Shown piece after piece: positions 3,081 to 56,194 of a stretch of 64,000 nt of DNA. Every line of letters starts with the position of its first letter. Position 1 is the first letter of the stretch. The DNA comes from Candidatus Nomurabacteria bacterium RIFCSPHIGHO2_01_FULL_37_25 (GTDB lineage Bacteria; Patescibacteriota; Minisyncoccia; Phycocordibacterales; UBA9973): NCBI GenBank assembly GCA_001786765.1, contig MFTH01000016.1:21666-85665 (forward strand), given 5' to 3'. The position numbers and the translations under genes are program-made. The notes beneath the pieces were generated by a model. That model did not search any database. It worked only from the letters and a program-made list of their open reading frames with translations, and was not told the origin of the DNA.

Positions 3081-3566
3081 ATGGGACTTATGTATGAAAT
3101 TCTAAAAGAGCTAAGTAGCCAATCTTTTTATTATAAAGGGGTACAGGTTAATTTATTTGGACTCCCAAAATTTAAAGATTATTCGCGGAATAGTATAAGC
3201 GGTTCTCTCTCTTATATGCATAAAAAAGGTTTTTTAGAATATGATGACGAAAAAATAAAAATTACTCATGAAGGTCGAAAATATATAACAAGAAAATTCG
3301 ATTCATTAAAACAATTTAATTTCAAATTTGGAAAAGATGCGCCCAAAAATCTTATAGTTATGTTTGATATTCCGGAGACTAGAAAAGCCGAAAGAGAATG
3401 GTTACGTTGGCATCTAAAAAAATTTAATTACTTGATGATTCAAAAGAGCGTGTGGGTCGGGCCGTCACCACTACCTAAAGAATTTTTAGATTATGTAAAA
3501 AGTATAGGTATAAAGGATGGATTAAAAACCTTCAAACTAGCCAAAGGCTACGTATTTGAAAAATAA
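3081..3566 (+). CDS. small wHTH + PaaX-C/Cas2-fold domain protein (PaaX-family-like putative regulator)
   Basis: 161 aa. The C-terminal LIVMFDIPETRKAEREWLRWHLKKFNYLMIQKSVWVG resembles the PaaX C-terminal / Cas2-like motif (hhhFDIPE...R..LR..L...GF..LQ.SVW). The N-terminus looks like a winged helix. Confidence 0.45.
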   Translation: MGLMYEILKELSSQSFYYKGVQVNLFGLPKFKDYSRNSISGSLSYMHKKGFLEYDDEKIKITHEGRKYITRKFDSLKQFNFKFGKDAPKNLIVMFDIPETRKAEREWLRWHLKKFNYLMIQKSVWVGPSPLPKEFLDYVKSIGIKDGLKTFKLAKGYVFEK

Positions 3567-3681
3567 CAAATACTTATATTTCTGCTATCGCAGAGTTCTA
3601 AGTATTTGTTAGTGTTTGTTATTTGTTTAGGTTAACTATTTTATCTTAAGATTATATTTTAAGATTATATCTTAAAATTAA

Positions 3682-4932
3682 CTATAATATTTTCTCTTTA
3701 ATTCTCTCAAGGGCGAGGATGAATGCGCCCATGCGCAGAGAAGTTTTTGTTTTTTTTGTTTTTTCTAACATTTTTTTAGAGGCGCCTTTCATAATTTTAT
3801 TTAATTTTTCAAAAACCTTTTCTTCACTCCAATGTTTATTTTTCAAATTTTGGTCCCATTCAAAATACGAAACTACAACTCCTCCGGAATTCGCAAGTAT
3901 ATCTGGCACAACCGGAATATCTTTTTTAAATAAAATTTCATCTGCCTCGGGCGTCGTAGGACCGTTGGCAAGTTCTAAGATAGCTTTAGCTTTTATTTTT
4001 CCAGCATTTTTCTCAGTTATAACATTTTCAAAAGCGGCTGGGATTAGAAGGTCACAGGGGAGTTCGAGTAATTCTGCATTTGTAATATTTTTAGCTCCTG
4101 GAAAATTTTTAAAGCTACCAGTCTTTTTCTTATAATTTTCAACACCTTCTAAATCTAATCCATTTTTGTTAAATATTGCGCTCTTAGAATCAGATACCGC
4201 TATGACTTTATGTTTATTTTCAGTAAAAATACGCGCTACATTTCCACCTACATTTCCAAAACCTTGAACCACTACTTTGCATTCTTCTGGGAGTTTGAGT
4301 TCTTTTCGAAGAGCGTCAAAAGCATAAAAACCACCTAAGCCAGTTGCTGGGCCTCTACCTTCTGAACCGCCTTTGTCTATAGGCTTACCTGTAAATGTCG
4401 CTCTTGTTTCATTGATATTTTTATTTTTAGTTATTTTTTTGTATTCATCTGCCATCCAAGCCATTATCTCTGGCGTGGTATTTACATCCGGCGCAGGCAC
4501 ATCTTTATATGGTCCCAAAATATCAGAAAGTTTTTGCACCCATCCGCGCGAAAGTTTTTCCAGTTCTCCTTTAGACAACTTTTTCGGATCAACTGTTACT
4601 CCGCCTTTACCTCCACCCATCGGAATTCCAGCTACTGCGCATTTGAGCGCCATCCAGAAAGCGAGAGCTTTTACTTCATTTATTTCAGTATCAAGATGGT
4701 ATCTGATTCCACCCTTGTATGGCCCTAGAGCGTTGTTATATTCCACTCTATATCCTTCAAAAACTCGCAAAGAACCGTCGTCCATTTTTATTGGAATCGA
4801 AATTCTTATATCGCGATCGGGTTGGCGCATTCTCTTTATAAACTCAGCGCTAAAACTTTTGTTTATTTTAGCAACTTTGTCTAGCTGTGCCATGGCGTTC
4901 TTAAATGGATTGTGCATGTTTATAGTATACAT
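3682..4932 (-). CDS. gdhA: NAD(P)-specific glutamate dehydrogenase
   Basis: 416 aa. KGGIRYH, GIPMGGGKGG, GFGNVGG dinucleotide motif. Confidence 0.9.
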   Translation of the reverse strand: MYTINMHNPFKNAMAQLDKVAKINKSFSAEFIKRMRQPDRDIRISIPIKMDDGSLRVFEGYRVEYNNALGPYKGGIRYHLDTEINEVKALAFWMALKCAVAGIPMGGGKGGVTVDPKKLSKGELEKLSRGWVQKLSDILGPYKDVPAPDVNTTPEIMAWMADEYKKITKNKNINETRATFTGKPIDKGGSEGRGPATGLGGFYAFDALRKELKLPEECKVVVQGFGNVGGNVARIFTENKHKVIAVSDSKSAIFNKNGLDLEGVENYKKKTGSFKNFPGAKNITNAELLELPCDLLIPAAFENVITEKNAGKIKAKAILELANGPTTPEADEILFKKDIPVVPDILANSGGVVVSYFEWDQNLKNKHWSEEKVFEKLNKIMKGASKKMLEKTKKTKTSLRMGAFILALERIKEKIL

Positions 4933-7822: not shown

Positions 7823-8848
7823 CTATCTTGCGTGTATATAAAGATATATATCCTCGAGAGCGCGGACGGCGTCGCCAGCGGCGATGTTGTTTTGATGATA
7901 TAGGACATTAGTGCAGTCTCCTGCCGCCCAGATACCGGGAATTTCTGTTTTTTGGGACCAAGCGTCAATTTTGATTCTTCCATATTCATCAAGTGGCACA
8001 AGGCTTTTAGCAAAATCAGTGTTTGGGATTTGTCCGATTTCCACAAAAATACCAGAGACTTTTAATTCTTTCTCTCCGCCTGCTTCCGACTCGGGAGGGC
8101 GAGCAGGTTTATAAATTATTCCTTCTACAAATTTATCGCCTTGCACTTCTAAGATTTCAATATTTTTTATTAATTTCATTTTTGGATTTTTCAAAACTTT
8201 TTCCACCGTTATTTCATCTGCGCGAAGAGTGTTGCTACGATTGAGAAGAGTTACAGATTTGCAATATGCCAGAAGTTGCGCGGCTGTTTCAAAGCCGGCA
8301 TTGCCTCCGCCGATTACAGCTACATCCATTTCCGAAAAAAGAGGTCCATCGCAAGAAGCGCAATAGGTGAGACCTTTGTGTTCAAGTTTGTCTGCATTTT
8401 TAGCAACAAGCTTCCTGCGTCCGCTTCCGCTCGTTATTAAAATTGTTTTAGTTAAAAACTCTTCACCTGATTCTATTTTGACAGAAAAATTCCCATCCTT
8501 TTTTTCTTTGGTGGAGGCGTTGCCTCCGCCATTTGACGGAAGCAAGGCTTCCGTAATGCTGATTACTTTTTCCCCTTCTTTTACTAGCAGGGTAGAACCT
8601 AAGTTTTCAGACTCTTTTATATTTTCCGTGCCTATGGCATTCGCCATTACATGTTTTTTTAAATTTTCCGCTAATTCATTACCAGAGATCAAGGTGGTGC
8701 CTATCCAATTGTAAATCTGTTCAGATACGATAGATTGTCCGCCCCATTCGGTGGTGATAAGAATAGTTCGGAGTCTTTTTCTAGAAGCATACACAGCCGC
8801 CGCCGTGCCCGCTGGCCCGCCTCCAATTATTATTAAGTCGTATGTCAT
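7823..8848 (-). CDS. trxB: thioredoxin-disulfide reductase with ~20-aa in-frame insertion
   Basis: MTYDLIIIGGGPAGTAAAVYA, CASC redox motif, AVIGGGNAG. The ORF track starts at GTG 8863. The ATG at 8848 gives the canonical N-terminus. Confidence 0.85.
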   Translation of the reverse strand: MTYDLIIIGGGPAGTAAAVYASRKRLRTILITTEWGGQSIVSEQIYNWIGTTLISGNELAENLKKHVMANAIGTENIKESENLGSTLLVKEGEKVISITEALLPSNGGGNASTKEKKDGNFSVKIESGEEFLTKTILITSGSGRRKLVAKNADKLEHKGLTYCASCDGPLFSEMDVAVIGGGNAGFETAAQLLAYCKSVTLLNRSNTLRADEITVEKVLKNPKMKLIKNIEILEVQGDKFVEGIIYKPARPPESEAGGEKELKVSGIFVEIGQIPNTDFAKSLVPLDEYGRIKIDAWSQKTEIPGIWAAGDCTNVLYHQNNIAAGDAVRALEDIYLYIHAR

Positions 8849-8878
8849 AATTTCATTATACACTATACATGGAATTTT

Positions 8879-8974
8879 AAAAATGTACTTTTGCAGGGGT
8901 TTCGAGGCTGTCGAGCCGAGAACTTCAGGATTTTTTAAGCTTCAAAAAATCCGTACCGGAAAAAGTACATTTTT
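8879..8974. repeat. family-1 structured repeat, copy C (core 8896-8958, forward). It fills the ftsZ-stop / trxB-start spacer.
   Basis: AAAAATGTACTTTT-gc-GGGGTTTCGAGGCTGTCGAGCCGAGAACTTCAGGATTTTTTAAGCTTCAAAAAATCCGTACCG-g-AAAAAGTACATTTTT. Confidence 0.85.
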
Positions 8975-10200: not shown

Positions 10201-10237
10201 TCCCGACCGTCTGTCGGGATCCCGACTATGGTCGGGA
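10201..10237. repeat. tandem CCCGAC/GTCGGG hairpin pair (ftsA-ftsZ spacer)
   Basis: TCCCGAC-cgtct-GTCGGGA then TCCCGAC-tatg-GTCGGGA. Confidence 0.8.
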
Positions 10238-11479: not shown

Positions 11480-11840
11480 ATTTTCTTTCCGCTTTTTCCA
11501 TTGTACTACTATGTGTCATTCCTTTCAAATGAAGCATTCCGTGGATAACTAAAAACCCCAAGAATTGATCAAAGGTTTTAGAAAAATCTTTTGCTTCTCT
11601 CTTTACAACAGTCGGACACAGAATAAGCTCTCCCTCGTTCTCGCGTAAAGAAAAAGAAAGGATGTTGGTCGCTCTATCTTTCTTTCGATATTTTTTATTT
11701 ATTTCTTTAGATTTATTTTCGGCAACATAAGCTATGGATAGAGAATACTTTTTACCTAAAATATCGTTTTTTATTTTCAAAAACGGCAAAGGGGGGAGCT
11801 TGCTTTTTGTTTTGTTTATTATGGAGAAATTTTCTTCCAT
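11388..11840 (-). CDS. ybeY: rRNA maturation endoribonuclease YbeY
   Basis: HGMLHLKGMTH zinc motif. The 3' end overlaps ftsA by ~90 nt, so the C-terminus is uncertain. Confidence 0.7.
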   Translation of the reverse strand: MEENFSIINKTKSKLPPLPFLKIKNDILGKKYSLSIAYVAENKSKEINKKYRKKDRATNILSFSLRENEGELILCPTVVKREAKDFSKTFDQFLGFLVIHGMLHLKGMTHSSTMEKAERKYDEKYFSGNRPRLLNDESRGGRIFKRRKKS

Positions 11841-11842
11841 AA

Positions 11843-12082
11843 TTATTTAGTTGCCATCTTGCCAAGTTTTTTGAGTTTCTCTATTTCTTTTCTGCGAGCC
11901 ATCCTTTTAAGAGCGCTCTTTTTTACTTTGAGTTTGGATTCTTTTCGGACATTATAACGAGAGCCTTTCACTTTGCGGATTATGCCTGATTCTTGAATTT
12001 TACGCGAAAAACGACGCAAAATGCTTGAATTATTTTCATTTGGATTTTTCTTGACCTGTATTACAGTCTTTGCCATATACAA
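11843..12082 (-). CDS. rpsU: ribosomal protein bS21
   Basis: IQVKKNPNENNSSILRRFSRKIQESGIIRKVK...KKSALKRMARRK. Confidence 0.8.
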   Translation of the reverse strand: MYMAKTVIQVKKNPNENNSSILRRFSRKIQESGIIRKVKGSRYNVRKESKLKVKKSALKRMARRKEIEKLKKLGKMATK

Positions 12083-12135
12083 AAGACTAGCATATAATTG
12101 ACTCTTTTGTCAAAAAAAGATAACATTCATAGATT

Positions 12136-12618
12136 ATGAATCAAGTAGTTAATTATATAACTGAAGAAAAAAGAAAAGAGCTGAAAGTTGAACTAGAAGA
12201 ATTAAAAGGACCTAAAAGAAAAGAAATTTTAGCTGCTTTGAAGTATGCTAAATCATTAGGCGACTTATCAGAGAATGCGGAATATCATCAAACTCGTGAA
12301 GACCAAGGCAAGCTTGAAGAACGTATTGTCAAGATAGAACAAATTTTACAGTCTTCGCAAAATTTTTCTAGACGTGGAGGAGATGTTGTTGAAGTAGGCT
12401 CTAAAGTAATTGTGCAAAAGCTTGGAACGCAAACCAAAAATGTCGGCGAAGATATAATCTATACTATAGTAGGATCTGAAGAGGCAGATATGACAAAGGG
12501 TAAAATCTCTCATAGGTCTCCTTTTGGAGAAGCGCTTTTTGGCAAAAAGAAAGGCGAAAATATTTCATTTAAGACTCCAGGCGGGGTAGTTAATTATAAA
12601 ATAATAAATGTAAGTTAA
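12136..12618 (+). CDS. greA: transcription elongation factor GreA
   Basis: GDLSENAEYHQTREDQ coiled-coil motif plus a C-terminal FKBP-like domain. Confidence 0.85.
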   Translation: MNQVVNYITEEKRKELKVELEELKGPKRKEILAALKYAKSLGDLSENAEYHQTREDQGKLEERIVKIEQILQSSQNFSRRGGDVVEVGSKVIVQKLGTQTKNVGEDIIYTIVGSEEADMTKGKISHRSPFGEALFGKKKGENISFKTPGGVVNYKIINVS

Positions 12619-14779: not shown

Positions 14780-14820
14780 TCCCGACGTAAAGTCGGGACC
14801 CCGACCTAAAAGCGTCGGGG
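14780..14820. repeat. tandem CCCGAC/GTCGGG hairpin pair upstream of mraZ
   Basis: TCCCGAC-gtaaa-GTCGGGA then CCCCGAC-ctaaaagc-GTCGGGG. Confidence 0.8.
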
Positions 14821-14834
14821 TTTAGAAAAAAAAT

Positions 14835-15384: not shown

Positions 15385-16329
15385 ATGCACAGGACAGTTC
15401 TTTTAAATGAAGTTATAGATGGGTTGAATTTAGGCTCCGGTTCCATCGTCGTAGATGCAACATTTGGCGGCGGAGGGCATAGTCTGGAGATTTGTAAAAG
15501 ATATCCGAGTGTGAGGATAATTGCCTTAGATCAAGATCAAAGTGCTCTCGAAAAAGCCAAAAGTAAATTCAAAGATTCAAATTGTGATGTTACTTTTATA
15601 AATGCGAATTTTAGAGACCTAGATAGGGTGAACTTGGGAAATTTAAGCGTCGTGGGTTCCCTGTCCTCTGGTCTCCGAGGGCGAAGGCGCAAAAATTTTC
15701 CAAGTTCACCCGTAGACGGAATCATTTTTGATTTAGGTTTGAGTTCTGACCAGTTGGAGAATTCTGGACGAGGATTTTCTTTTCAAAAAGATGAACCACT
15801 TTTAATGACTATGAAAGAGAATCCAACTTCCGGAGATGTTACAGCGAAAGATGTTGTAAACACTTGGGGAGAAGATAGTTTAGCCGATATTATTTACGGT
15901 TATGGTGAAGAAAAGCAAGCTCGCAGAATCGCTAAAAGAATAGTGGAATTTAGGAAAAAACAGGAAATTAAAACCACCTTTGATTTGGTAAAAGTAATAG
16001 AAGAGGCGATTCCAGCCAAGTTTCGTAAAGGCAAAATCCATTATGCCACTAAAACTTTTCAGGCAATAAGGATAGCGGTAAATGATGAGTTGGGAGCGCT
16101 TGCCGAGGGTTTGGATAAAGGTTTTAAGTTATTGAAGGTAGGAGGGAGGATGTCGGTGATTTCTTTCCATAGTTTAGAGGACAGGATAGTAAAGAGATTT
16201 TTTAAGAAAAAAGCGGAAGAAAATTTAGCAAAGTTAATTAATAAAAAACCCATTATTGCTAAATTAGAAGAAATAAAAAATAATCCGAGGTCAAGAAGCG
16301 CAAAATTAAGAATTTTATCCCGACGCTAA
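15385..16329 (+). CDS. rsmH: 16S rRNA (cytosine1402-N4)-methyltransferase RsmH, carrying an in-frame ~80-nt repeat insertion
   Basis: VVDATFGGGGHS, VDGIIFDLGLSSDQL, SFHSLEDRIVK. Extra segment NLSVVGSLSSGLRGRRRKNFP relative to RsmH homologues. Confidence 0.9.
   Translation: MHRTVLLNEVIDGLNLGSGSIVVDATFGGGGHSLEICKRYPSVRIIALDQDQSALEKAKSKFKDSNCDVTFINANFRDLDRVNLGNLSVVGSLSSGLRGRRRKNFPSSPVDGIIFDLGLSSDQLENSGRGFSFQKDEPLLMTMKENPTSGDVTAKDVVNTWGEDSLADIIYGYGEEKQARRIAKRIVEFRKKQEIKTTFDLVKVIEEAIPAKFRKGKIHYATKTFQAIRIAVNDELGALAEGLDKGFKLLKVGGRMSVISFHSLEDRIVKRFFKKKAEENLAKLINKKPIIAKLEEIKNNPRSRSAKLRILSRR
15626..15711. repeat. family-2 hairpin element inserted in-frame in rsmH
   Basis: GGGTGAACTTGG-gAAATTTAAGCGTCGTGGGTTCCCTGTCCTCTGGTCTCCGAGGGCGAAGGCGCAAAAATTTT-CCAAGTTCACCC. 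The core is shared with 24905-24970. Confidence 0.85.
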
Positions 16330-16365
16330 TTCGGGACCCCGACACAAATTTACTTGGCGTCGGGG
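16318..16365. repeat. tandem CCCGAC/GTCGGG-type hairpin pair overlapping the rsmH stop codon
   Basis: TCCCGA-cgctaat-TCGGGA then CCCCGAC-acaaatttacttggc-GTCGGGG. Confidence 0.75.
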
Positions 16366-18524: not shown

Positions 18525-18644
18525 TCCCGTTAGAGATATGATGGTTTTTCAGAAAAAATGAAAGAGAATATAACAATATGATTAAAGTTTTAATTAAAAG
18601 TAATGTAATTACGGAAATCTAAAGATTTCCTATCTCTAACGGGA
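18525..18644. mobile_element. TIR-bounded element, copy 1 (TIR TCCCGTTAGAGATA / TATCTCTAACGGGA); the right TIR abuts the murF ATG
   Basis: Perfect 14-bp terminal inverted repeats enclose 92 nt of AT-rich sequence. The same TIR is at 41105-41183. Confidence 0.7.
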
Positions 18645-19993
18645 TGAAGACAATTCTTAAAAAAATAATAGCTTACATACTACAGATAGAATCACGCCTG
18701 GTAATTTTTAGATATAAACCGAAGATTGTCGCTATTACCGGCTCGGTCGGCAAGACTTCCACTAAGGATGCAGTTTATGCAGTTCTCTCCGGAATGTCGC
18801 ATGTTCGCAAAAGTGAGAAAAGCTATAATAGCGAAATAGGATTGCCACTGACTATTTTAGGTATTCCAAATGGATGGAATAATCCTCTGGTGTGGGTTCA
18901 AAATATTTGGAAAGGTCTTTGGCTTTTTCTTAGTCCTTTTGGGCCTCACAAATATCCCAAATGGCTTGTCCTCGAAGTCGGTGTAGGCAAGCCGGGTGAT
19001 ATGCGTCGCACAGCTTCTTGGTTTAAAACTGATGCGGTTATCATCACTGCCATCAGCGAGACTCCGGCTCATATTGAATTTTTTAATTCCCGAAAAGACC
19101 TTATAAAAGAAAAAAGCGAGCTCATAAAAACTTTAAAACCAGATGGCATTTTAATATTAAATGCTGATGACGAGGACGTGCTCTCTATGAGAAACCAAAG
19201 TAAGACTAAAGATAAGCATCGCGCTATAACTTATGGATTTACAGAAGGCGCTGATGTTTTGGCATCTCAAGATAGTATTTTTTATGGTGATTTAGGTGAA
19301 CCTCGAGGAATAACTTTTAGAATAGATGAGAGGGGGAATAGTCTACCTGTAATTACAGAAGGTGTATTTGGCAGAAATCATGTCTATGCTTCTCTCGGAG
19401 CTTTAGCTTTTTCTTCAATTTTGAAATTTAATATGCTGGATGCGGTGAATTCGCTAAAAAATTATGATGTTGCGCCAGGGCGTATGCGATTGCTAAATGG
19501 TATTAACGGAACTTTGATTATTGATGATACTTATAACTCTTCTCCTTTTGCTTGTGAATCCGCGCTTAAAACTTTAGGAGAAGTAAAATGTTTGGGGAGG
19601 AAAATTGCTATTTTGGGCGATATGCTTGAATTAGGTAAATACACAGAAGAAGCTCATAAAAATATCGGCAAGATAGCTAAAGAAAATTGTGATGTTTTGG
19701 TAGTGGTGGGTCATAGAGCGCAAGCTATAAAGTCTGGTGCTCTGGAAGCAGGGATGAATAATGCGAATATTTTTGAATTTTTAGATTCATATCAAGCTCA
19801 CGAATTTGTAAAAACTTTTGTGCGGGCAGGCCCGCCTGCTCCTGACGAAGGAGGGCGGGCAGGGGACTTGGTGCTCGTAAAAGGTTCTCAAGGTATGCGT
19901 ATGGAGCGTGTGGTAGAGGCGATACTTTTTGATAAAGAAAATAAAGAAAAACTACTGGTTCGTCAAGACAAAGAATGGTTGAAGAAAAAATAA
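18644..19993 (+). CDS. murF: UDP-N-acetylmuramoyl-tripeptide--D-alanyl-D-alanine ligase with a GC-rich hairpin insertion near the C-terminus
   Basis: ITGSVGKTSTK P-loop, Mur ligase domains. Extra RAGPPAPDEGGRAG before LVLVKGSQG. Confidence 0.85.
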   Translation: MKTILKKIIAYILQIESRLVIFRYKPKIVAITGSVGKTSTKDAVYAVLSGMSHVRKSEKSYNSEIGLPLTILGIPNGWNNPLVWVQNIWKGLWLFLSPFGPHKYPKWLVLEVGVGKPGDMRRTASWFKTDAVIITAISETPAHIEFFNSRKDLIKEKSELIKTLKPDGILILNADDEDVLSMRNQSKTKDKHRAITYGFTEGADVLASQDSIFYGDLGEPRGITFRIDERGNSLPVITEGVFGRNHVYASLGALAFSSILKFNMLDAVNSLKNYDVAPGRMRLLNGINGTLIIDDTYNSSPFACESALKTLGEVKCLGRKIAILGDMLELGKYTEEAHKNIGKIAKENCDVLVVVGHRAQAIKSGALEAGMNNANIFEFLDSYQAHEFVKTFVRAGPPAPDEGGRAGDLVLVKGSQGMRMERVVEAILFDKENKEKLLVRQDKEWLKKK

Positions 19994-20084
19994 TTGATTA
20001 AAATCGTAGTAGCTTTTAGGTCAAAAAGAAAGGGCCTGCGAAATCTCAAATATATGATAATCACGCAGGCCCAGATGTGGTTGA

Positions 20085-20153
20085 CTACCGCTTACACAAG
20101 CGCTGCCCAATGGCAGCGAACATCACCGCCAAGATGACGGGGGCCGCCGACAT
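20085..20153 (-). CDS. hypothetical 22-aa hydrophobic peptide (type I toxin-like composition)
   Basis: MSAAPVILAVMFAAIGQRLCKR. AAGGAGGA sits 23 nt upstream, which is non-optimal spacing. Confidence 0.15.
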   Translation of the reverse strand: MSAAPVILAVMFAAIGQRLCKR

Positions 20154-20182
20154 TTGGGCGGTCTGTGCCTCTGTGTCCTCCT

Positions 20183-20323
20183 TTAAATTGACTCCATTAA
20201 TTTTTTTTCACCGTGTGGTGATACACACGGTGGTGGATCGTGCGTTGCCCAAAAACGCAACGCTATTGATCCCAACAACATCCCCCCCACACAACAAAAC
20301 AAAACAACTAGAAATCTTTGCAT
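20183..20323 (-). CDS. hypothetical 46-aa hydrophobic peptide with canonical SD (GGAGGA, 8 nt spacer) in a GC-rich islet
   Basis: MQRFLVVLFCCVGGMLLGSIALRFWATHDPPPCVSPHGEKKLMESI. The local GC is far above the genome background. It overlaps the + ORF 20077..20325 from the track. Confidence 0.25.
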   Translation of the reverse strand: MQRFLVVLFCCVGGMLLGSIALRFWATHDPPPCVSPHGEKKLMESI

Positions 20324-20530
20324 AATAACTCTCCTCCCTATCTCAACCTCTCACTTTCGGTGCTGAGGCCATCCTTTTACGGATTTTATAGAGTGATTCC
20401 AAAAAAAGATATATCATGTTAAAATGTTATTGTCAAGGGTTCAAGTAATAGTTTTGTTACCTTTGTGACCTATTGTATGACGAATTAGAACTTGCCTTGA
20501 CCAGGTCAAGGCGCTATCAGGGCGTTATAA

Positions 20531-21301
20531 CTACAGGTTAGTCTTAATCCAACTATCAAAAATAGTTTTTATTTCTGCTAGATTTTTTGGGTCTCTAAAA
20601 GTATGAGGCGCATCTTTGATTATGTGTATTTCTTTTTTGCCGGGCAATTTATCAAAAAGTATTTTTTGATGTTCTGGTGGTGTACTGTCGTCTTTGTCTC
20701 CAACTATTAATAATACTGGCATAGTTAATTTATTTGCTTCTGGCAATAAATCATATTTCATCCTGTCTTCCATTTCTGCCCATTTTAATTTCTTGACAAG
20801 TCCAGGCTTTGATTCACTTTCTTGGATTAGCCAACCTGTCTTTTTCCATTCATCTATTTTTCCACGAGATTTCTTTGTTTCAAGACTAAGTCCTCCGGAC
20901 ACAACTGTCGAAATCGGCGCAAGGGCTTTAACTTCATTTGGGTATCTTTCTGCATATAGGGCAGTTGATATTCCACCTAGGCTATGTCCAACAAGCCAAA
21001 ATGGTTCTTTGTACCAAGTTTGAATTTTTGCCCAATTAATAACGTCTTCTAAATCTTCGTAATAGTTTGTTGTAGTCGCATCTTCGTATAAACCCTCGCT
21101 TTCACCATATGTGTGAGTTGTATCAAATAGAACAGTAGTAAAATCATTTTCTCTGAAAGCCTCAGCAAAGGTTTGAATATGTTTTTGTTCTTTGAATCCT
21201 CCAAGTCCATGCATAACAAAAACTAAACCCTTTGATTTTTGGTTTTTGTCAACAACTACAGCAATTTTTTTATCGTTACGATTTTTTATAAATATTTTCA
21301 T
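20531..21301 (-). CDS. alpha/beta hydrolase (esterase/lipase-like)
   Basis: VFVMHGLGG, nucleophile elbow GHSLGG, C-terminal DAPHTF. The ORF-track start at 21340 overlaps a tRNA. The ATG at 21301 (MKIFIKNRNDKK) is preferred. Confidence 0.7.
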   Translation of the reverse strand: MKIFIKNRNDKKIAVVVDKNQKSKGLVFVMHGLGGFKEQKHIQTFAEAFRENDFTTVLFDTTHTYGESEGLYEDATTTNYYEDLEDVINWAKIQTWYKEPFWLVGHSLGGISTALYAERYPNEVKALAPISTVVSGGLSLETKKSRGKIDEWKKTGWLIQESESKPGLVKKLKWAEMEDRMKYDLLPEANKLTMPVLLIVGDKDDSTPPEHQKILFDKLPGKKEIHIIKDAPHTFRDPKNLAEIKTIFDSWIKTNL

Positions 21302-21319
21302 TTGTTTTTTTGTGCCTTG

Positions 21320-21391
21320 TGACCTTACTGGGAATCGCACCCAGATTTAAAGCTTGAGAAGCTCTTGTCCTAACTATTAGACGATAAGGCC
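21320..21391 (-). tRNA. tRNA-Glu (anticodon CUC), paralogue of the tRNA-Glu(UUC) at 6634
   Basis: Reverse complement GGCCTTATCGTCTAATAGTTAGGACAAGAGCTTCTCAAGCTTTAAATCTGGGTGCGATTCCCAGTAAGGTCA. The 5' half is nearly identical to the other tRNA-Glu. Confidence 0.75.
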
Positions 21392-21494
21392 TTGTGTAAA
21401 AAATACAACATTTAAAACAAAAAATCAAAGATTTTTTAGCACCTACATAAGATTTCTGCATATGCGGGAATTTTAGATAACATAATTTTATTCT

Positions 21495-24893: not shown

Positions 24894-24981
24894 ACTATGA
24901 GAATGAAAAATTTAAGCGTCGTGGGTTCCCTGTCCTTATGACCTCGAGGGCGAAGGCGCAAGAATTTTTTATTCTCATAGT
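24894..24981. repeat. family-2 hairpin element, intergenic copy (between the MYG1 gene and obg)
   Basis: ACTATGAGAAT-gaaAAATTTAAGCGTCGTGGGTTCCCTGTCCTTATGACCTCGAGGGCGAAGGCGCAAGAATTTTtt-ATTCTCATAGT. The 11-bp flanking inverted repeat differs from the rsmH copy. Confidence 0.85.
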
Positions 24982-33182: not shown

Positions 33183-36100
33183 ATGCCAAAAGAAATGAGT
33201 GATGCAACACGTCCGAAAAAATATTTTAGTAGATATAAAAAACCTCTCGTTCCTTTTCCAAATTTAATTGAAGCTCAACTCAAGAGTTTCAAATGGCTAG
33301 TGGAACAGGGAATTAGCGAAGTCTTCAAAGAATTTTCTCCAATCAGTGATTACTCTACAAAAAAGTTTCAACTTGAATTCACTTCTTTTTCACTTAGTGA
33401 ATGTAAATACGACGAGAATCACGCTAAAATAAATAAACTTTCATATCAAGGACTTCTAAAGACGCGGGTAAAATTAACAAATAAAATTTTAGGTACTGTA
33501 AAGGAACAGGAGATTTTTATGTCTGAACTTCCTTTGATGACTTCTCACGGAACTTTTATTATAAATGGTGTAGAGCGTGTTATCGTTCCGCAGCTTGCTC
33601 GAAGTTTTGGAGTTTTCTTTACCGAGTCCGAGATCAAGGGTAATAAATATTTTGGCGCTAAAATTATTCCAGCTCGTGGAGTTTGGATTGAGATAGAGTC
33701 CGAGGCAGATGGAGCGATTTACATAAGGATAGATAAAAAAAGAAAATTTCCCGCAACAGCATTATTGCGAATTATGGGTTATGAGAATAACGACAACATA
33801 CTGAAGGCTTTTTCTGGAAATCCTATTTTCACAAAAACGATAAAAACTTGTTTAGAAAAAGATGGAGTGAAGAGTCTAAATGATTCATACATTGAGATTT
33901 ATAAACGCTTGAGAGATGGTGATATGGCAACAGCTGATAATGCCAAAGAGTTTATTAATTCTTTATTTACCGCTGAGCGATATGATCTTTCTCCGGTTGG
34001 TCGTTTCAGATTTAACAAACGTTTTGATAAACCTATGGACGATACGGCGCTAGCTCGCAGGACTATTTCCAAAGAGGATTTGGTAACGGTGATTATGAAT
34101 ATTATTCTTTTAAACAATACTCCTTTTGCTAAGAGTGATGACATAGATCATTTAGGTCAGAGACGTGTGCGATTTGTCGGTGAAACACTCCAACAGAAAG
34201 TACGCACCGGGATGATGCAAATCAAAAGAAATATTCAAGACAGAATGTCTATCATAGATGTTGATACCGCAATGCCTATAGCTATTATCAATCAACGCCC
34301 ACTCCAAGCTCGCATCAAAGAATTTTTCACAACCAATCAACTTTCGCAATTCATGGCGCAAGAGAATGTGCTTTATGAAATAGAACATTTACGCACACTT
34401 TCAGCGCTTGGGCCCGGAGGATTGACACGCGAGCGCGCAGGCTTGGAAGTTCGTGATGTGCATCCATCGCATTATGGGAGAGTTTGTCCTATTCATACTC
34501 CTGAAGGTCCAAACATCGGACTTATTTTACACCTTTCTACATATGCAAAGATAAATGAATTTGGGATCATTGAAACTCCATATATCAAAGTTAAAAATGG
34601 CAAGTTAACTGATGAAGTAATTTATCTAAACGCGCTTGAAGAAGAAAAATATAATATTGCGCATGCGGGAACGCCTTATGACTTGAAAGGTAACATAACT
34701 GAAGAAAAAGTAGAAGCTAGGATTAAGACAGAACCAGGCACGATTTCTCGCGATGAGGTTGATTTTATTGATGTTGCTCCAAACCAGGCTTTTTCTGTTG
34801 CAACTTCCATGGTTCCGTTCTTGGAACACAACAATGCTAATCGCGCTTTAATGGGAAGTAATATGCAGAAACAAGCTGTGCCTTGCGTATTGCCAGAAGC
34901 GCCATTAGTCGCTACAGGTATTGAAGAATTAGCAGCGCAAGATTCAGGGAGGTTAATTATAGCGGAGGAAGACGGAGTCATTTCCTATTTGGATGCAAAA
35001 AAGATAGTAATAGAGGGGAAATCTCCTGCCCGCAATGCTTCGCATAGCGATGCAGGCGGAGGAAAGCTTTCTAATAAAACTTACAACCTTGTAAATTTTA
35101 TGAGAAATAATAATTTTGCAGTATTTCATCAGCGTCCACTGGTTAACATTGGCGATAAAATAAAGAAAGGCGATATATTAGCAGATACTAGCAGTACCGT
35201 GGGTGGACAAATTTCGCTGGGACAGAATGTTTTCGTGGCTTTTTTGTCTTGGTCTGGAGCAACTTACGAAGACGCTATAATTGTTTCTGAACGTCTTGTA
35301 AAGAAAAGTAAATTTACATCAGTTTATGTTGAAGAGTTTACTTGCGTAGTTCGTGATACTAAGCTTGGACCTGAAATTACCACTCGTGACATACCAAATG
35401 TTGGAGAGCTCAAGCTCAAAGATTTAGACGAAGATGGTATTGTCCGTATCGGAGCGGAAGTTAGAGAAAATGATATTTTAGTTGGTAAAATTACGCCAAA
35501 AGGCGAGACGGAACTTACTCCAGAGGAGCGGTTGCTACGTTCAATCTTTGCTGAAAAAGCGCGTGATGTTAAAGATACGTCACTACGAGTGGAACATGGT
35601 AAGCGTGGACGCATCATTGGTGTAAAGATTTTTTCTCGCGATTTAGGACATACCCTTGAAGCGGGAATTATTAAAAAAATTATAATTGAAATCGCGCAAA
35701 TCAGAAATATTTCAGTTGGGGACAAACTTTCTGGACGACATGGAAACAAAGGAGTCATTTCAGTAATTCTGCCAGAAGAAGACATGCCCTATATGGCAGA
35801 TGGTACACCAATCGATATTATTCTTTCGCCACTTGGTGTTCCTTCTCGTATGAACTTGGGACAAATTTTTGAAATGCATCTAGGCATGGCGGCTAACAGT
35901 CTTGGTTATCAGGCGATTGTACCCCCATTTTTAAGCGCTAAATATGATGAAATTAAAGAGGAATTAGTAAAAGCCGGACTACCAGAGTCTGGTAAATTAA
36001 AACTTTTTGATGGACGTACCGGAGAAGCTTTTGAGCAAGATGTTGCAGTCGGTTATATGTATATGTTGAAGCTTCATCATATGGTGGAAGACAAAATTCA

Positions 36101-36410
36101 TATGCGTTCAATTGGACCTTATTCTCTTATTACTCAACAGCCTCTCGGTGGAAAAGCTCAAGGCGGAGGACAGAGATTTGGAGAAATGGAAGTTTGGGCA
36201 TTGGAAGGTTATGGCGCAGCTTATACATTGCGTGAAATGCTTACTATTAAATCTGATGACATACTCGGCAGGTCGGCGACATTTGATTCTATTATTAAAA
36301 ATGAGACAATCAGACCGCCAAATTCCCCGGCATCATTTAATGTTTTGCTTAATTATTTGCGAGGTCTAGCCTTGGATGTAAATTTAAAAAAAGGGGGAAG
36401 TAAGGAATAA
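33183..36410 (+). CDS. rpoB: DNA-directed RNA polymerase beta subunit (short, 1075 aa)
   Basis: Conserved blocks across the full length, ending ...NYLRGLALDVNLKKGGSKE. Confidence 0.95.
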   Translation: MPKEMSDATRPKKYFSRYKKPLVPFPNLIEAQLKSFKWLVEQGISEVFKEFSPISDYSTKKFQLEFTSFSLSECKYDENHAKINKLSYQGLLKTRVKLTNKILGTVKEQEIFMSELPLMTSHGTFIINGVERVIVPQLARSFGVFFTESEIKGNKYFGAKIIPARGVWIEIESEADGAIYIRIDKKRKFPATALLRIMGYENNDNILKAFSGNPIFTKTIKTCLEKDGVKSLNDSYIEIYKRLRDGDMATADNAKEFINSLFTAERYDLSPVGRFRFNKRFDKPMDDTALARRTISKEDLVTVIMNIILLNNTPFAKSDDIDHLGQRRVRFVGETLQQKVRTGMMQIKRNIQDRMSIIDVDTAMPIAIINQRPLQARIKEFFTTNQLSQFMAQENVLYEIEHLRTLSALGPGGLTRERAGLEVRDVHPSHYGRVCPIHTPEGPNIGLILHLSTYAKINEFGIIETPYIKVKNGKLTDEVIYLNALEEEKYNIAHAGTPYDLKGNITEEKVEARIKTEPGTISRDEVDFIDVAPNQAFSVATSMVPFLEHNNANRALMGSNMQKQAVPCVLPEAPLVATGIEELAAQDSGRLIIAEEDGVISYLDAKKIVIEGKSPARNASHSDAGGGKLSNKTYNLVNFMRNNNFAVFHQRPLVNIGDKIKKGDILADTSSTVGGQISLGQNVFVAFLSWSGATYEDAIIVSERLVKKSKFTSVYVEEFTCVVRDTKLGPEITTRDIPNVGELKLKDLDEDGIVRIGAEVRENDILVGKITPKGETELTPEERLLRSIFAEKARDVKDTSLRVEHGKRGRIIGVKIFSRDLGHTLEAGIIKKIIIEIAQIRNISVGDKLSGRHGNKGVISVILPEEDMPYMADGTPIDIILSPLGVPSRMNLGQIFEMHLGMAANSLGYQAIVPPFLSAKYDEIKEELVKAGLPESGKLKLFDGRTGEAFEQDVAVGYMYMLKLHHMVEDKIHMRSIGPYSLITQQPLGGKAQGGGQRFGEMEVWALEGYGAAYTLREMLTIKSDDILGRSATFDSIIKNETIRPPNSPASFNVLLNYLRGLALDVNLKKGGSKE

Positions 36411-36415
36411 AATTT

Positions 36416-36799
36416 ATGAAAGATTTTCTTAACTGGCATACCAAAAAATCAAAACTGGATATAATTGAACAAAGACCGTATTTCCACGAAGGGGAAGTCT
36501 GGTATACGAGTTTGGGTTTGAATATAGGCTATGAACAAGATGGAAAAGGGCTGGACTACTTAAGACCAGTGCTGATTGTTAGAAAATTTAATAATGATGT
36601 TTGTTGGATTGTACCACTCACTCACACCCCCAAAGACAATATTTTCTACGTTCATATCACAGTAATAGGAAAATCAAGCACAGCTATACTTTCTCAACTA
36701 AAGCTTCTTGACGCGAGGCGTTTTAGCCATATGATTGATAAAATTTCTGATGAGGATTTTAAGTTAGTAACAAAAAAACTCAAAGGACTAATTCCTTGA
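36416..36799 (+). CDS. PemK/MazF/Kid-family endoribonuclease toxin-like protein (orphan; no adjacent antitoxin ORF)
   Basis: EGEVWYTSLGLNIGYEQDGKGLDYLRPVLIV...WIVPLTHTP aligns with Kid/PemK RGEIWLVSLDPTAGHEQQGTRPVLIV...VVVPVTS. The start codon lies 6 nt after the rpoB stop. Confidence 0.6.
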   Translation: MKDFLNWHTKKSKLDIIEQRPYFHEGEVWYTSLGLNIGYEQDGKGLDYLRPVLIVRKFNNDVCWIVPLTHTPKDNIFYVHITVIGKSSTAILSQLKLLDARRFSHMIDKISDEDFKLVTKKLKGLIP

Positions 36800-51925: not shown

Positions 51926-52947
51926 TTTCTAACGATATAGGTATAGATTTAGGCACATCAAATACCTTAGTCTATTTAAAAGGTCATGGGATAGTGATTA
52001 ACGAACCTTCTGTTGTGGCTGTTAATATCAAGACAAATCAGATTTTAGCAGTTGGCGCAAAAGCTAAAGAAATGTTGGGTCGCACACCCGGACATATCAA
52101 AGCTATTCGTCCGTTGGTGGATGGTGTTATATCGGACTTTGAGGTTACCGAAGAGATGCTTTCCTATTTAATAAATAAAGCAGACAAGATATCTAAAAAA
52201 TTAGCGCGACCGAGAGTTTTGATCGGTGTGCCGACTAACACAACCAATGTTGAAACACGCGCTGTATATGATGCGGCTCGTTCTGCTGGAGCGCGAGAAG
52301 TTTTTTTAGTGGAAGAACCAATGGCTTCGGCTATTGGAGTTAAACTTCCTATCAAGGATCCTGTCGGCTCTATGATTATAGACATCGGTGGAGGAACGAC
52401 TGATATTGCGCTGATTTCTTTGGGTGGAATTGTAAAATCGAAAAATTTAAAAATAGCTGGCGACAGGTTGAATAATGACATAATCACCCATATGCGTGAT
52501 GAATTTAAAATACTTATTGGCGAGAGAACGGCTGAAATGGTAAAAATCGCTATTGGTTCTGTATTGCCTTCCGAATACATGGAAACAGAAATTCATGGAC
52601 GCGATATTTTAACTGGATTGCCTCGCGTTGTGGTAGTGACTGATTCTGATATTCGTGAAGCGCTCAAAGCCTCAATTAAAGAATTAGTGGAAGGTGTAAA
52701 AGATATGCTTGAAACAACGCCACCTGAAATTTTATCCGACATAATGCACAGAGGCATAACTTTATCTGGTGGAGGAGCCTTGATACCCGGACTTGATCGA
52801 CTGTTGGGGCATGTTCTCAAAATCCCAGTCTATGTGGTGGAAGACCCGCTTTCATCTGTTGCGAGAGGCACAGGAATAATTCTAGACAACATGTCATTTT
52901 ATAAAGAAGTTTTGATTGGGAATCAAGATGAGTTACCTCCTAGATAA
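51901..52947 (+). CDS. mreB: rod shape-determining protein MreB
   Basis: IGIDLGTSNTLVY, actin-fold phosphate loops. Confidence 0.9.
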   Translation: MFEKLYKLISNDIGIDLGTSNTLVYLKGHGIVINEPSVVAVNIKTNQILAVGAKAKEMLGRTPGHIKAIRPLVDGVISDFEVTEEMLSYLINKADKISKKLARPRVLIGVPTNTTNVETRAVYDAARSAGAREVFLVEEPMASAIGVKLPIKDPVGSMIIDIGGGTTDIALISLGGIVKSKNLKIAGDRLNNDIITHMRDEFKILIGERTAEMVKIAIGSVLPSEYMETEIHGRDILTGLPRVVVVTDSDIREALKASIKELVEGVKDMLETTPPEILSDIMHRGITLSGGGALIPGLDRLLGHVLKIPVYVVEDPLSSVARGTGIILDNMSFYKEVLIGNQDELPPR

Positions 52948-53767
52948 AAAAACAAAAAGAAAGAAATTTTTTAGTGTTATATTTATTCTTATTTTTTTAT
53001 TTATTTTTATTTATTTTAGGTCGGGTATTTTTTATGGGTTGTCTTACGCGAGTCATATCATTTTTCGTCCAGTTTTAGTTTTAGGAAATAATATTGGTGA
53101 TAAATTTGTTAATATTAAATCGTATTTTATTTCTAAAAATTCTCTCTATCTGCAAAATCAAAATTTACAATCTGAAATAACTGAAAATAAAATCAAAATT
53201 TCAAATTACAATTCTATTTTAGCTGAAAATATTAATCTCAAGGAGATTTTAGGGCGCCTGCCTGCGCAGACAGGGGAAAATGGAAAAACAGTTACGACTT
53301 TAGCTGTTATTTTATCTAAACCAAACCAAAGTTTTTATAATACGCTTGTTATTGATGCAGGTATAAATGAGGATATAAAAGTAGGAAATATAGTTTTTGC
53401 CCTAGGTCATAGCCAGACGGGCGAGGTATTAAGCAATGTGCCCATTGGACGCATAGTTGAAACTTATTTAAATTCTTCTAAGGTCATTTTGTTTTCAAGT
53501 CCGGGCGAGAAAACACAGGTGATAATATCAGGCAAAGATGTTTTTTCGGAGATTATCGGGCGAGGAGGAGGAGGTAATTTTGAAATGATAATGCCTCAAG
53601 ATTTCACATTAGCAAAAGGAGATCAAGTGGTTTTACCCGGTATTGTTCCTTATGTTTTAGGTATTGTAGAAACGATAATTTCCGACCCGCGTGATTCTTC
53701 TGTCAAAGCGTTACTTGTAAGTCCAGTAAATATTCAGGAGTTGAAGTTTGTAGGGGTAAAGTCATAA
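52916..53767 (+). CDS. mreC: rod shape-determining protein MreC
   Basis: TM anchor, coiled coil, beta-barrel domain with GDQVVLPG. Confidence 0.7.
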   Translation: MGIKMSYLLDKKTKRKKFFSVIFILIFLFIFIYFRSGIFYGLSYASHIIFRPVLVLGNNIGDKFVNIKSYFISKNSLYLQNQNLQSEITENKIKISNYNSILAENINLKEILGRLPAQTGENGKTVTTLAVILSKPNQSFYNTLVIDAGINEDIKVGNIVFALGHSQTGEVLSNVPIGRIVETYLNSSKVILFSSPGEKTQVIISGKDVFSEIIGRGGGGNFEMIMPQDFTLAKGDQVVLPGIVPYVLGIVETIISDPRDSSVKALLVSPVNIQELKFVGVKS

Positions 53768-55712: not shown

Positions 55713-56194
55713 TGGTCCTGCATTGGATAGCTACTATTACCCGCCTTCGCTTAGGCTATGGCGTGGTGATAGAGGAAAGTCCGAACACAGACCAGTTCTT
55801 TTTTAAAAGAGTTGGTAGCATGGTAGTGGGTAACGCCCACATATAGCAATATATAGGTGCGAGCAGAGACGTCTTAATTCGAAAGAATTAAGATATCCAG
55901 TAATGGATAAATCTTTATATAAACTCAGGGCTTGCCCTGAGCGAAGTCGAAGGGTGAAACGGCTAAATCCTTACCTCTGTGCAAGATCGTGCCCCGCCCT
56001 CTTGAGTGCTGAACTTTATGTTTGCAATATATTTAGTCAGATATTTTGTAACGTTGAATTGAAAAAGTTTATATTGAGCACTCAAGAGGGCGGGGAGAAT
56101 CGCTTGAGCCCGAGAGTAATCGAGGGCCTAGATAAATTGCTATCTATTTTGTTTTAACAAAATACACAAAATTCGGCTTATAGATGCAAGACCA
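55713..56194 (+). ncRNA. rnpB: RNase P RNA (bacterial type A-like) with an unusually long 19-bp helix insertion
   Basis: P4 5' strand GAGGAAAGTCCGAAC (55772) pairs with the 3' strand TTCGGCTTA (56172), keeping the conserved bulged U. GGGTAACGCC and AGGGTGAAACGG motifs. The P18 region GCTTGAGCC...GGCCTAGATAAAT closely parallels E. coli GCUUGAGCC...GGCCUAGAUGAAU. P1 is TGGTCCTGCAT / ATGCAAGACCA. GNRA hairpin CTTAATTC-gaaa-GAATTAAG. Confidence 0.65.

Follow-up and report, generated by a model that had tools for sequence, protein, structure and literature searches.

A GC-rich hairpin inserted in frame in murF of a Candidatus Nomurabacteria genome as a probable member of a dispersed family of very short elements with terminal inverted repeats

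The window analysed here comprises 64,000 nucleotides of a Candidatus Nomurabacteria genome (candidate phyla radiation, CPR, or Patescibacteria) assembled from the Rifle aquifer metagenomes, with an overall G+C content of 35.7%, and its murF gene harbors a GC-rich hairpin bracketed by two identical 9-nt direct repeats. Judged from sequence comparison, this feature appears to be one copy of a family of non-coding GC-rich hairpin elements of 18–39 nt with a variable interior. Taken as a whole, it is considered probable that these hairpins are dispersed units bounded by terminal inverted repeats (TIRs), that they are tolerated in loops and moved in trans, and that the left of the two direct repeats in murF is secondary. 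As far as could be determined the family is previously undescribed; a literature search on palindromic, GC-rich or in-frame elements in CPR, Patescibacteria and Parcubacteria returned nothing relevant, limited to open-access text, so that an earlier description is possible.

The 9-mer GCGGGCAGG is read directly on the plus strand at positions 19822–19830 and 19855–19863, with the GC-rich hairpin lying between and overlapping the two copies. Direct repeats around a GC-rich hairpin in frame in murF, as described in the initial annotation, are thus present in the sequence. Over the whole window GCGGGCAGG occurs three times against 0.08 expected occurrences, a count reached by none of 100 shuffles, the third copy (35025–35033, minus strand) forming the terminus of a related rpoB element. 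The hairpin (19830–19860) is composed of a perfect 7-bp stem (GCCCGCC/GGCGGGC) and an inner stem (CTCC/GGAG). Its minimum free energy is −24.6 kcal/mol with a z-score of only −1.1 against dinucleotide shuffles, thus the fold is no more stable than the GC content alone predicts. The 42-nt stretch of repeats and hairpin, which reads VRAGPPAPDEGGRAGD in the murF open reading frame (ORF), has a G+C content of 79% by direct count, the 61 nt around it have 70%, and the compositional contrast is limited to about 45 nt. The element proper, denoted type A, spans 33 nt on the plus strand (19831–19863), is built as CCCGCCTGC-TCCTGACGAAGGAGG-GCGGGCAGG and is translated in frame as (G)PPAPDEGGRAG. At gathering thresholds Rfam identifies five tRNAs only in the whole window and, at E ≤ 1, nothing between 19700 and 20600; the element is therefore not a known RNA family.

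The host gene (18644–19993, plus strand) encodes the UDP-MurNAc-pentapeptide synthetase MurF of 449 amino acids, as identified by the Pfam domains Mur_ligase_M (PF08245) and Mur_ligase_C (PF02875), and by matches in the PDB (1gg4, 3zl8 and 4qdi, E-values of 1e-24 to 2e-26). When the 120 closest homologues (70–83% identity) are aligned, about 110 of them read KTFV-QKG-DLVLVKGSQG in place of KTFV-RAGPPAPDEGGRAG-DLVLVKGSQG in the window, and both the insertion relative to MurF orthologues and the small inserted element proposed earlier are hence supported by relatives with an empty site. The AlphaFold2 model of MurF (69 sequences) has a mean pLDDT (predicted local distance difference test) of 86.9, with residues 397–405 as the sole segment below 50, and the insert forms a coil between the last helix (382–392) and the strand 409–413 of the C-terminal domain. 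Being the coil position of lowest pLDDT, it is predicted to be a disordered surface loop preceding the last β-strand.

At the codon level the empty site in relatives is GTG CAA AAA GG(A/G) GAT, and the ancestral site is GTGCAAAAAGGGGAC. The closest long contig, P0004, is empty (GTG CAA AAA GGA GAT), while P0007 (GTG CAA AAA GG[C CCG CCT GCT CCC GAC GCA GGA GGG CGG GCA GG]G GAT), P0002 (GTG CAA AAA GG[C TCG CCT GCT TCC TAC AAA GGA GGG CGG GCA AG]G GAT) and the window (GTG CGG GCA GG[C CCG CCT GCT CCT GAC GAA GGA GGG CGG GCA GG]G GAC) are filled, with the insert given in brackets. The inserted unit obtained from this comparison is exactly 33 nt long, and the alleles show that a 33-nt copy entered murF exactly between ...CAAAAAGG and (G/A)GAT, without target duplication.

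Members of the family share the left terminus CCCGCCTGC and the right terminus GCGGGCAGG, which form 9-nt imperfect inverted repeats and enclose an interior of 0–21 nt. CCCGCCTGC and the reverse complement of GCGGGCAGG, namely CCTGCCCGC, are identical at seven of nine positions (consensus CCYGCCYGC, i.e. CCYGCCYGC...GCRGGCRGG for the element), and asymmetric mismatches of C·A and T·G type in this terminal stem of 9 bp are conserved. A TIR model with one mismatch allowed gives five distinct matches in the window (ten over both strands), marking four of the five elements described here, and none in 100 shuffles of the window; the murF element fits the model with no mismatch, again found in none of 100 shuffles. 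GC-rich perfect hairpins as a class are six-fold enriched in the window, with 25 against 3.9 ± 1.9 expected.

All five window copies are located inside long ORFs. A second type A element of 33 nt (TCCGCCTGCTTCCGACTCGGGAGGGCGAGCAGG; 8075–8107, plus strand) lies in the minus-strand trxB/ahpF-like gene (7823–8863) and is read in the opposite orientation as PARPPESEAGG; the corresponding TrxB loop is YK-DKTSGEET-ELK in about 105 of 120 relatives, and in the PDB alignment the loop of the window protein is longer than that of AhpF. In rpoB (33183–36410) a type B element of 36 nt (TCCGCCTGC-ATCGCTATGCGAAGCATT-GCGGGCAGG; 35025–35060, minus strand) encodes the peptide PARNASHSDAGG at a position where the closest RpoB relatives read GKK--EKTY, and peptides of this kind are also found in MurF of P0104 and in TrxB of P0125, P0167 and P0216. 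These alignments confirm the trxB and rpoB patches as lineage-specific insertions too. The gene mreC (52916–53767) carries a minimal element of 18 nt consisting of the termini only (CCTGCCTGC|GCAGACAGG; 53257–53274), translated as RLPAQTG, and the metagenome locus L050 has a full type A copy at the same position, both proteins being MreC according to Pfam. The fifth copy is a 21-nt perfect palindrome (C-CCTGCCTGC-CG-GCAGGCAGG; 1616–1636; LPAGRQG) in the minus-strand tsaD gene (1561–2826), a host confirmed by the TsaD Pfam match; the same element type is found at the murF insertion site of P0023.

Metagenome contigs were scanned with the pattern CCGCCTGCTNCNGACNNNGGAGGGCGRGCAGG, which covers the murF, P0007 and trxB copies, and 57 matches were obtained on 55 contigs, mostly of 31–48% GC. 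About 30 of these belong to a single multi-copy IS3-like insertion sequence (IS), in which the element is situated in frame in the C-terminal tail of the rve transposase; that these copies with identical flanks represent a master copy or an RNA gene was rejected, as the flanks are the IS3-like transposase ORF. The IS (HTH orfA plus rve integrase core) is found on L017, L022, L035 (e.g. 3664–4299), L053 and some 25 further metagenome loci, twice each on L017 and L053, and may offer a hitch-hiking route between genomes. The remaining matches are independent insertions in long ORFs, with GyrA, YidC, EF-P, a DnaX-like clamp-loader subunit, MreC and a GlyRS-like class II aminoacyl-tRNA synthetase as Pfam-confirmed hosts, together with MiaA, which is hit at two different positions in two genomes; aminopeptidase N, cysteine desulfurase, PurA and an S41 peptidase were assigned by eye. 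Near-identical copies of type A are present in more than 20 unrelated genes. The search for the element elsewhere, suggested by the initial annotation, therefore returned a dispersed family, in the window as well as on metagenome contigs. These matches show the family to be spread over many unrelated housekeeping genes of Nomurabacteria- or Paceibacterota-like genomes and, by at least one copy, to extend to a genome outside the CPR. The type A scan of viral contigs gave no match, and there is therefore no evidence for a phage vehicle.

Further junctions were analysed in related GTDB genomes, obtained via murF, by comparing their syntenic genes codon by codon. In lysS of L004 an 18-nt unit with two termini and no interior is inserted as gaaaaa[CCTGCCCGCGCAGGCGGG]aagaaa versus the empty gaaaaa|aagaaa, and a second murF site of L004 (aaaaac[CCGCCAGATGGTCGGGCAGGC]attttt) and an ftsA insertion ([CCGCCAAAGACGGATCAGTCTCGGGCTGAA]) are likewise clean events with an empty site. 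About ten insertion positions in total are observed among the MurF relatives. Since the junction ambiguity is only 0–3 nt (AGG at murF, 0 at L004 lysS, 1 at the second murF site of L004) and the insert length equals the TIR-to-TIR length, no target-site duplication (TSD) is formed.

Alternatively, no mobile element might be involved and the hairpins might arise locally by biased mutation at fragile A-tracts, through template switching or snap-back, break filler or untemplated GC addition. This would account for the great diversity of 18–21-nt hairpins of the CCGCC-N3-GGCGG type at many sites and for the repeated use of the same A-rich tracts, and it agrees with the missing TSD and with the fact that no enzyme was found. 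However, identical stretches of 30 nt and more with non-palindromic interiors (type A, and type B with ATCGCTATGCGAAGCATT) are found in unrelated genes and genomes, the terminal asymmetric mismatches are conserved, and template switching at a quasi-palindrome yields the wrong sequence for the left repeat (see below). A local mutational origin is therefore considered improbable.

The lengths of the copies in coding DNA are all multiples of three (18, 27, 33, 36 and 39 nt) except for two copies in a doubtful ORF of L054. Essentially none of the six frames of the 33-mer contains a stop codon, and four of them are found translated, as PPAPDxGGRAG, PARPPxSGAGG, LPALLRREQA and CPPSxVGSRRG. The flanks are A/T-rich and often consist of sense-strand A-tracts. 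The same permissive loops are shown by the alleles to have been hit repeatedly by different family members: the murF hot spot contains type A in forward orientation, the 21-nt palindrome (P0023), a reverse element (P0018) and a nested double element (P0097), the trxB hot spot contains type A, type B and a minimal element in different lineages, and in rpoB and mreC different members are likewise found at one position. In a neighbour-joining tree of MurF that excludes the variable columns, the filled alleles are dispersed between empty ones, with filled P0002 as sister to empty P0005 and the window allele as sister to a mostly empty clade, which requires several gains or scarless losses.

Copies are also seen to decay, evidently by G/C→A/T substitution. 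The changes in the P0002 copy are exclusively of this kind, and in an orthologous copy of L004 and L005 (YPATGG versus YPSSGG) the stem is not conserved any more, which argues against a host function of the hairpin. Furthermore, elements are nested in the loops of other copies, three of them in L069 and two in P0097. The L069 contig (1–1000) is a non-coding 1-kb sequence crowded with GC-rich hairpins, which includes the three nested type A copies and a repeated unit GGTTCATCTCCAATTTAGTGGA.

Inserts in surface loops and the recurring peptides PPAPDxGGRAG and PARPPxSGAGG could also indicate an adaptive Pro/Gly-rich protein loop, serving for instance interaction or flexibility, with the DNA palindrome being incidental. 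Contrary to this notion, the inserts are sporadic and non-monophyletic among close relatives, and the same DNA in both orientations and several frames gives rise to unrelated peptides such as LPALLRREQA and CPPSFVGSRRG. As copies in addition decay, nest and occur in non-coding DNA, and the DNA is more conserved than the peptide, selection for the loop as the origin of the inserts is very improbable.

With regard to the direct repeats, the right one is the conserved terminus of the element itself and is present in every family member. The left repeat (19822–19830, plus strand) is an extra copy of this right terminus GCGGGCAGG abutting the left end of the element, unique to the window allele among the copies examined (about 660 kb) and shared by all strain-level variants of that allele. 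It replaces the host codons CAA AAA (QK to RA) with unchanged length by four substitutions, every one of them toward the right-end sequence (CAAAAAGG to CGGGCAGG). The empty alleles as well as the filled P0007 and P0002 still have the ancestral G-CAAAAAGG, which was already identical to the right terminus at five of nine positions. Because the right terminus is native and the left flank was ancestrally CAAAAAGG, we infer that the left repeat is a secondary event. Two routes are plausible, either a short, length-preserving conversion tract from a head-to-tail element junction, or duplication of the 33-nt unit in tandem, after which 33 nt were lost by slippage deletion out of register. Template switching at a quasi-palindrome, examined by hand for the change from CAAAAAGG to CGGGCAGG, predicts ...GTCCCCT|GCCCGCC, which differs from the observed sequence, and other left flanks do not show the general resemblance of target sites to the right end of the element that the five of nine identities at murF suggested.

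Whatever its origin, the pair of 9-nt repeats flanking the hairpin constitutes a substrate for slippage deletion, and a deletion between them would leave GTGCGGGCAGGGGAC (VRAGD). In formal terms the repeat-flanked hairpin also looks like a translational bypass element with its matched codons for take-off and landing, and ribosomes might leave the message at CGG-GCA-GG and land 33 nt downstream to produce MurF of wild-type length (…FVRAGDLVLVK…; junction ...TFVRAGDLVLVK). In this copy only, identical codons (CGG GCA GG, twice, 33 nt apart) flank a stable hairpin, the codons past the take-off site are GC-rich (CCG, CGG, GGG) in a genome of 36% GC, and the four left-flank substitutions all increase identity to the landing site; GC clusters bypassed in coding regions are known as well (PMC8811140). 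Against a bypass cassette, an in-frame insert without stop codons makes bypassing unneeded, and no stop codon follows the putative take-off codon. Lengths that are multiples of three in coding DNA indicate read-through translation, and no other copy has matched flanks, which leaves the bypass very improbable.

The initial annotation regarded the repeats as a 9-bp TSD of a classical small transposon or MITE (miniature inverted-repeat transposable element); murF would then ancestrally have read GTG CGG GCA GGG GAC (VRAGD). A perfect 9-bp direct repeat around a palindrome and an element with TIRs are indeed what such a transposon would leave behind. All empty alleles, however, are QKG, QKN or KKG with DNA of the CAAAAAGG type and never RAG, the left flank of the filled P0007 and P0002 is CAAAAAGG, all copies have the right repeat as their native terminus, and the other clean junctions (lysS and the second murF site of L004) show a duplication of 0–1 nt. 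Empty sites as such were thus found in close relatives, yet none of them lacks one repeat plus the hairpin in the form of VRAGD, and a duplication of the target is rejected as hardly credible. A coincidence of Gly/Pro codons as the explanation of the repeat, put forward for the case of conserved residues and no empty site in any relative, is rejected by the existence of empty sites. The comparison of strain variants gave the same allele throughout and no intermediate one. An assembly or sequencing artefact, such as a chimeric GC-rich read or an adaptor-like hairpin, would fit the extreme composition confined to about 45 nt and can practically be dismissed, since the allele is shared by strain-level variants (OGI60059, OGI87573 and others) on 16 independently assembled contigs from several NCBI, JGI and ENA assemblies, independent projects contain related alleles at this codon, the insert is in frame, and 55 metagenome contigs carry the family.

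In the reading favored here, that of dispersed hairpin elements moved in trans, copies would survive in coding DNA by their length of 3n and by a GC-rich sequence which is stop-free in nearly all frames. They would land in, or be tolerated only in, surface loops, where they would be translated as a flexible loop of Pro, Ala, Gly and Arg. Least certain is the mobilisation itself: the elements may be moved by an enzyme with specificity for the hairpin or the ends, cleavage and joining taking place precisely at the termini, for which single-strand "peel-and-paste" transposition of the HUH/Y1 type (IS200 and REP-associated tyrosine transposases, RAYTs, REP denoting repetitive extragenic palindromic sequences; IS200/IS605) is the most likely candidate chemistry. 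A Y1-type reaction would account for the absence of a TSD, the asymmetric stem mismatches, the orientation bias, the nesting and the apparently scarless loss.

A search for Y1/HUH genes, queried first with transposase sequences of this kind and then with the L037 protein, gave one such gene. On L037 a Y1_Tnp gene (PF01797, E-value of 3.6e-27) is located 118 nt from a non-coding type A copy; in this region (8288–8925) the RAYT-like gene (8370–8831) has AACTCC-GTAG-GTGTT REP hairpins on both sides and the type A copy lies beyond the downstream ones. A weak RAYT-like match on L001 (5217–5909) was discarded for want of Pfam support.

Several observations weigh against the favored reading. No mobilising enzyme was found, Y1/HUH genes being absent from the window and from the rest of the approximately 660 kb besides L037, and the L037 contig encodes NADH dehydrogenase (nuo) genes, is not of CPR origin and has its Y1 gene flanked by different GTAG REPs of its own, for which reason this gene was not accepted as demonstrating a cognate enzyme. 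In part, the constancy of type A is due to construction, the scan pattern fixing most positions. Neither the trxB nor the rpoB copy is a simple insertion, with six host residues lost in the former and extra residues present in the latter. In ORFs of at least 200 amino acids 20 elements are reverse and 4 forward relative to the host gene, 14 of the 24 in one frame, a bias that is inseparable from peptide selection, a preference for A-rich sense tracts or co-orientation of genes and replication. Finally, no intermediate murF allele of the window lineage is present in the protein collection, so the origin of the left repeat is deduced indirectly.

A more far-reaching interpretation, which is offered as a tentative possibility and appears rather doubtful, is that of a new class of minimal DNA transposon with a unit down to 18 nt, inserted and excised scarlessly at exact ends by a hairpin-specific enzyme with a bias for one strand and for A-rich tracts or the loops of other copies. 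Such elements would colonise the essential CPR proteome (rpoB, gyrA, murF, dnaX, efp and others) and continually remodel surface loops, and the repeat flanking the murF copy might also make it possible for the copy to be deleted scarlessly or hopped over by ribosomes.

Compared with known systems, the closest analogue seems to be the GC clusters of yeast mitochondria. These are short GC-rich palindromes of an AT-rich genome with polymorphic in-frame insertions in var1, shared termini, fast-evolving loops, merging and nesting and an unresolved mobilising mechanism, and the byp GC clusters of Magnusiomyces are bypassed in translation (PMC8811140). Like the yeast clusters (about 30–50 nt), the element is a polymorphic, short GC-rich palindrome of an AT-rich genome, is located in frame and is prone to nesting. 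Unlike them, it has a bacterial (CPR) host, 9-nt TIRs (CCYGCCYGC) and no consistent AG/TAG terminal repeat or TSD, AGG being shared at the murF site only and absent elsewhere. In yeast the clusters are mostly intergenic and their AG/TAG terminal repeats are regarded as TSD, in contrast to the elements described here, most observed copies of which are situated inside essential protein genes and apparently translated. We know of no sequence similarity between the two.

Rickettsia palindromic elements (RPEs) measure about 100–150 bp and encode a conserved peptide of 30–50 amino acids. Similar to the present family, they are palindromic repeats inserted in frame in unrelated housekeeping ORFs, described as repeats of about 150 bp in many such genes which encode a function-compatible peptide (PMC10969869). 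With 18–39 nt (6–13 amino acids) the elements are three to eight times shorter, are GC-rich within an AT-rich genome, belong to a different phylum and encode a peptide which varies with orientation and frame, a distinction based on length and peptide. REPs are extragenic and possess a conserved GTAG/CTAC head. Common to REP/REPIN-RAYT systems and the present elements are imperfect GC-rich multi-copy palindromes of 20–40 nt, the lack of a TSD, a strand bias, conserved stem mismatches and, in the case of L037 with its different REPs and non-CPR contig, the vicinity of a Y1_Tnp gene. The differences are that copies of types A, B and C all lack GTAG/CTAC in their termini, that the elements are intragenic (five of five in the window and most metagenome copies in long ORFs) and that no RAYT is present in the window or the CPR loci examined.

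MITEs (Correia, ERIC, Nezha and others) typically range from about 50 bp to a few hundred bp and normally have TSDs and a parent IS with the same TIRs. Bacterial members are non-autonomous, TIR-bounded, multi-copy and occasionally located in frame in ORFs (PMC10969869). Their inverted terminal repeats are shared by the present elements (9 nt, imperfect), the size and the TSD are not (18–39 nt and none), and no parent IS with matching TIRs was seen in the window; the IS3-like IS carries its copy inside an ORF and not at the ends. Bypass elements of the T4 gene 60 or byp type resemble this murF copy alone in having matched take-off and landing codons around a hairpin, and differ in that the segment here is in frame and stop-free. 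The family thus fails a defining feature of each of GC clusters, RPEs, REP/RAYT and MITEs.

Several other features of the window are reported for completeness. Directly after the murF stop codon (20032–20325) a hairpin with a 9-bp GC stem (GGGCCTGCG...CGCAGGCCC) and an AT-rich loop precedes some 250 nt of GC-rich sequence, in which the only ORF is implausible; Rfam gave no match here, and related loci contain nothing similar. The interval between murF and rmuC looks like an integration hot spot: in the closest relative (L001, 11471–19655) it contains about 8 kb of mobile DNA with an HNH endonuclease, a D12 methyltransferase and two serine recombinases, and its counterpart in the window (20000–21400) an alpha/beta hydrolase and tRNA-Glu(CTC). 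A different repeat of about 50 nt (GTCGTGGGTTCCCTGTCC...GAGGGCGAAGGCGCAAAAATTTT; 15631–15702) is an in-frame insert in a hypervariable part of rsmH (15385–16329) and is the reverse complement of inserts at the same site in L009 (7000–7077) and L001 (7039–7143); a second copy is found at about 24918–24970 in the intergenic region upstream of obg. Intergenic GC-rich hairpins of a CCCGAC...GTCGGG family, often doubled (10202–10236, 14781–14821 and 16321–16365), occupy spacers of ftsA-ftsZ and of the mraZ-rsmH-ftsL region, the motif being also present in the greA coding sequence of L004 and L009.

The cumulative GC skew has its minimum at about 11500–12200, where minus-strand genes (1.5–12 kb) switch to plus-strand genes (12–64 kb); this may be replication-origin-like, with no dnaA nearby. 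A gene for a PemK/MazF-family toxin (36416–36799, Pfam E-value of 2.4e-10) is situated between rpoB and rpoC, where a toxin-antitoxin module is unusual. A protein of 161 amino acids with a PaaX_M/Cas2-like domain (3081–3566, Pfam E-value of 6.8e-13) has no CRISPR array noticed nearby, and an 84-residue ORF starting with MDKSLYKLRACPERSRRVKRLNPY... (55903–56157), without Pfam match, resembles a translated GC-rich repeat rather than a gene.

For murF, the comparison of alleles corrects the reading of the direct repeats as a target-site duplication. If the favored reading of the family is right, its members would be the smallest TIR-bounded repeat elements known to us, and such patches would be non-homologous insertions, to be masked in annotation and phylogenomics, and at the same time natural presence/absence markers for strain tracking. 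The family would represent a bacterial counterpart to the yeast mitochondrial GC clusters and the RPEs, the mobilisation mechanism of which is to our knowledge still unresolved, with thousands of metagenomic genomes allowing comparative tests. CPR bacteria, streamlined, AT-rich and largely uncultured, would carry these elements mainly inside essential genes, and the elements would account for much of the length variation of CPR proteins and for their low-complexity patches of Pro, Ala, Gly and Arg.

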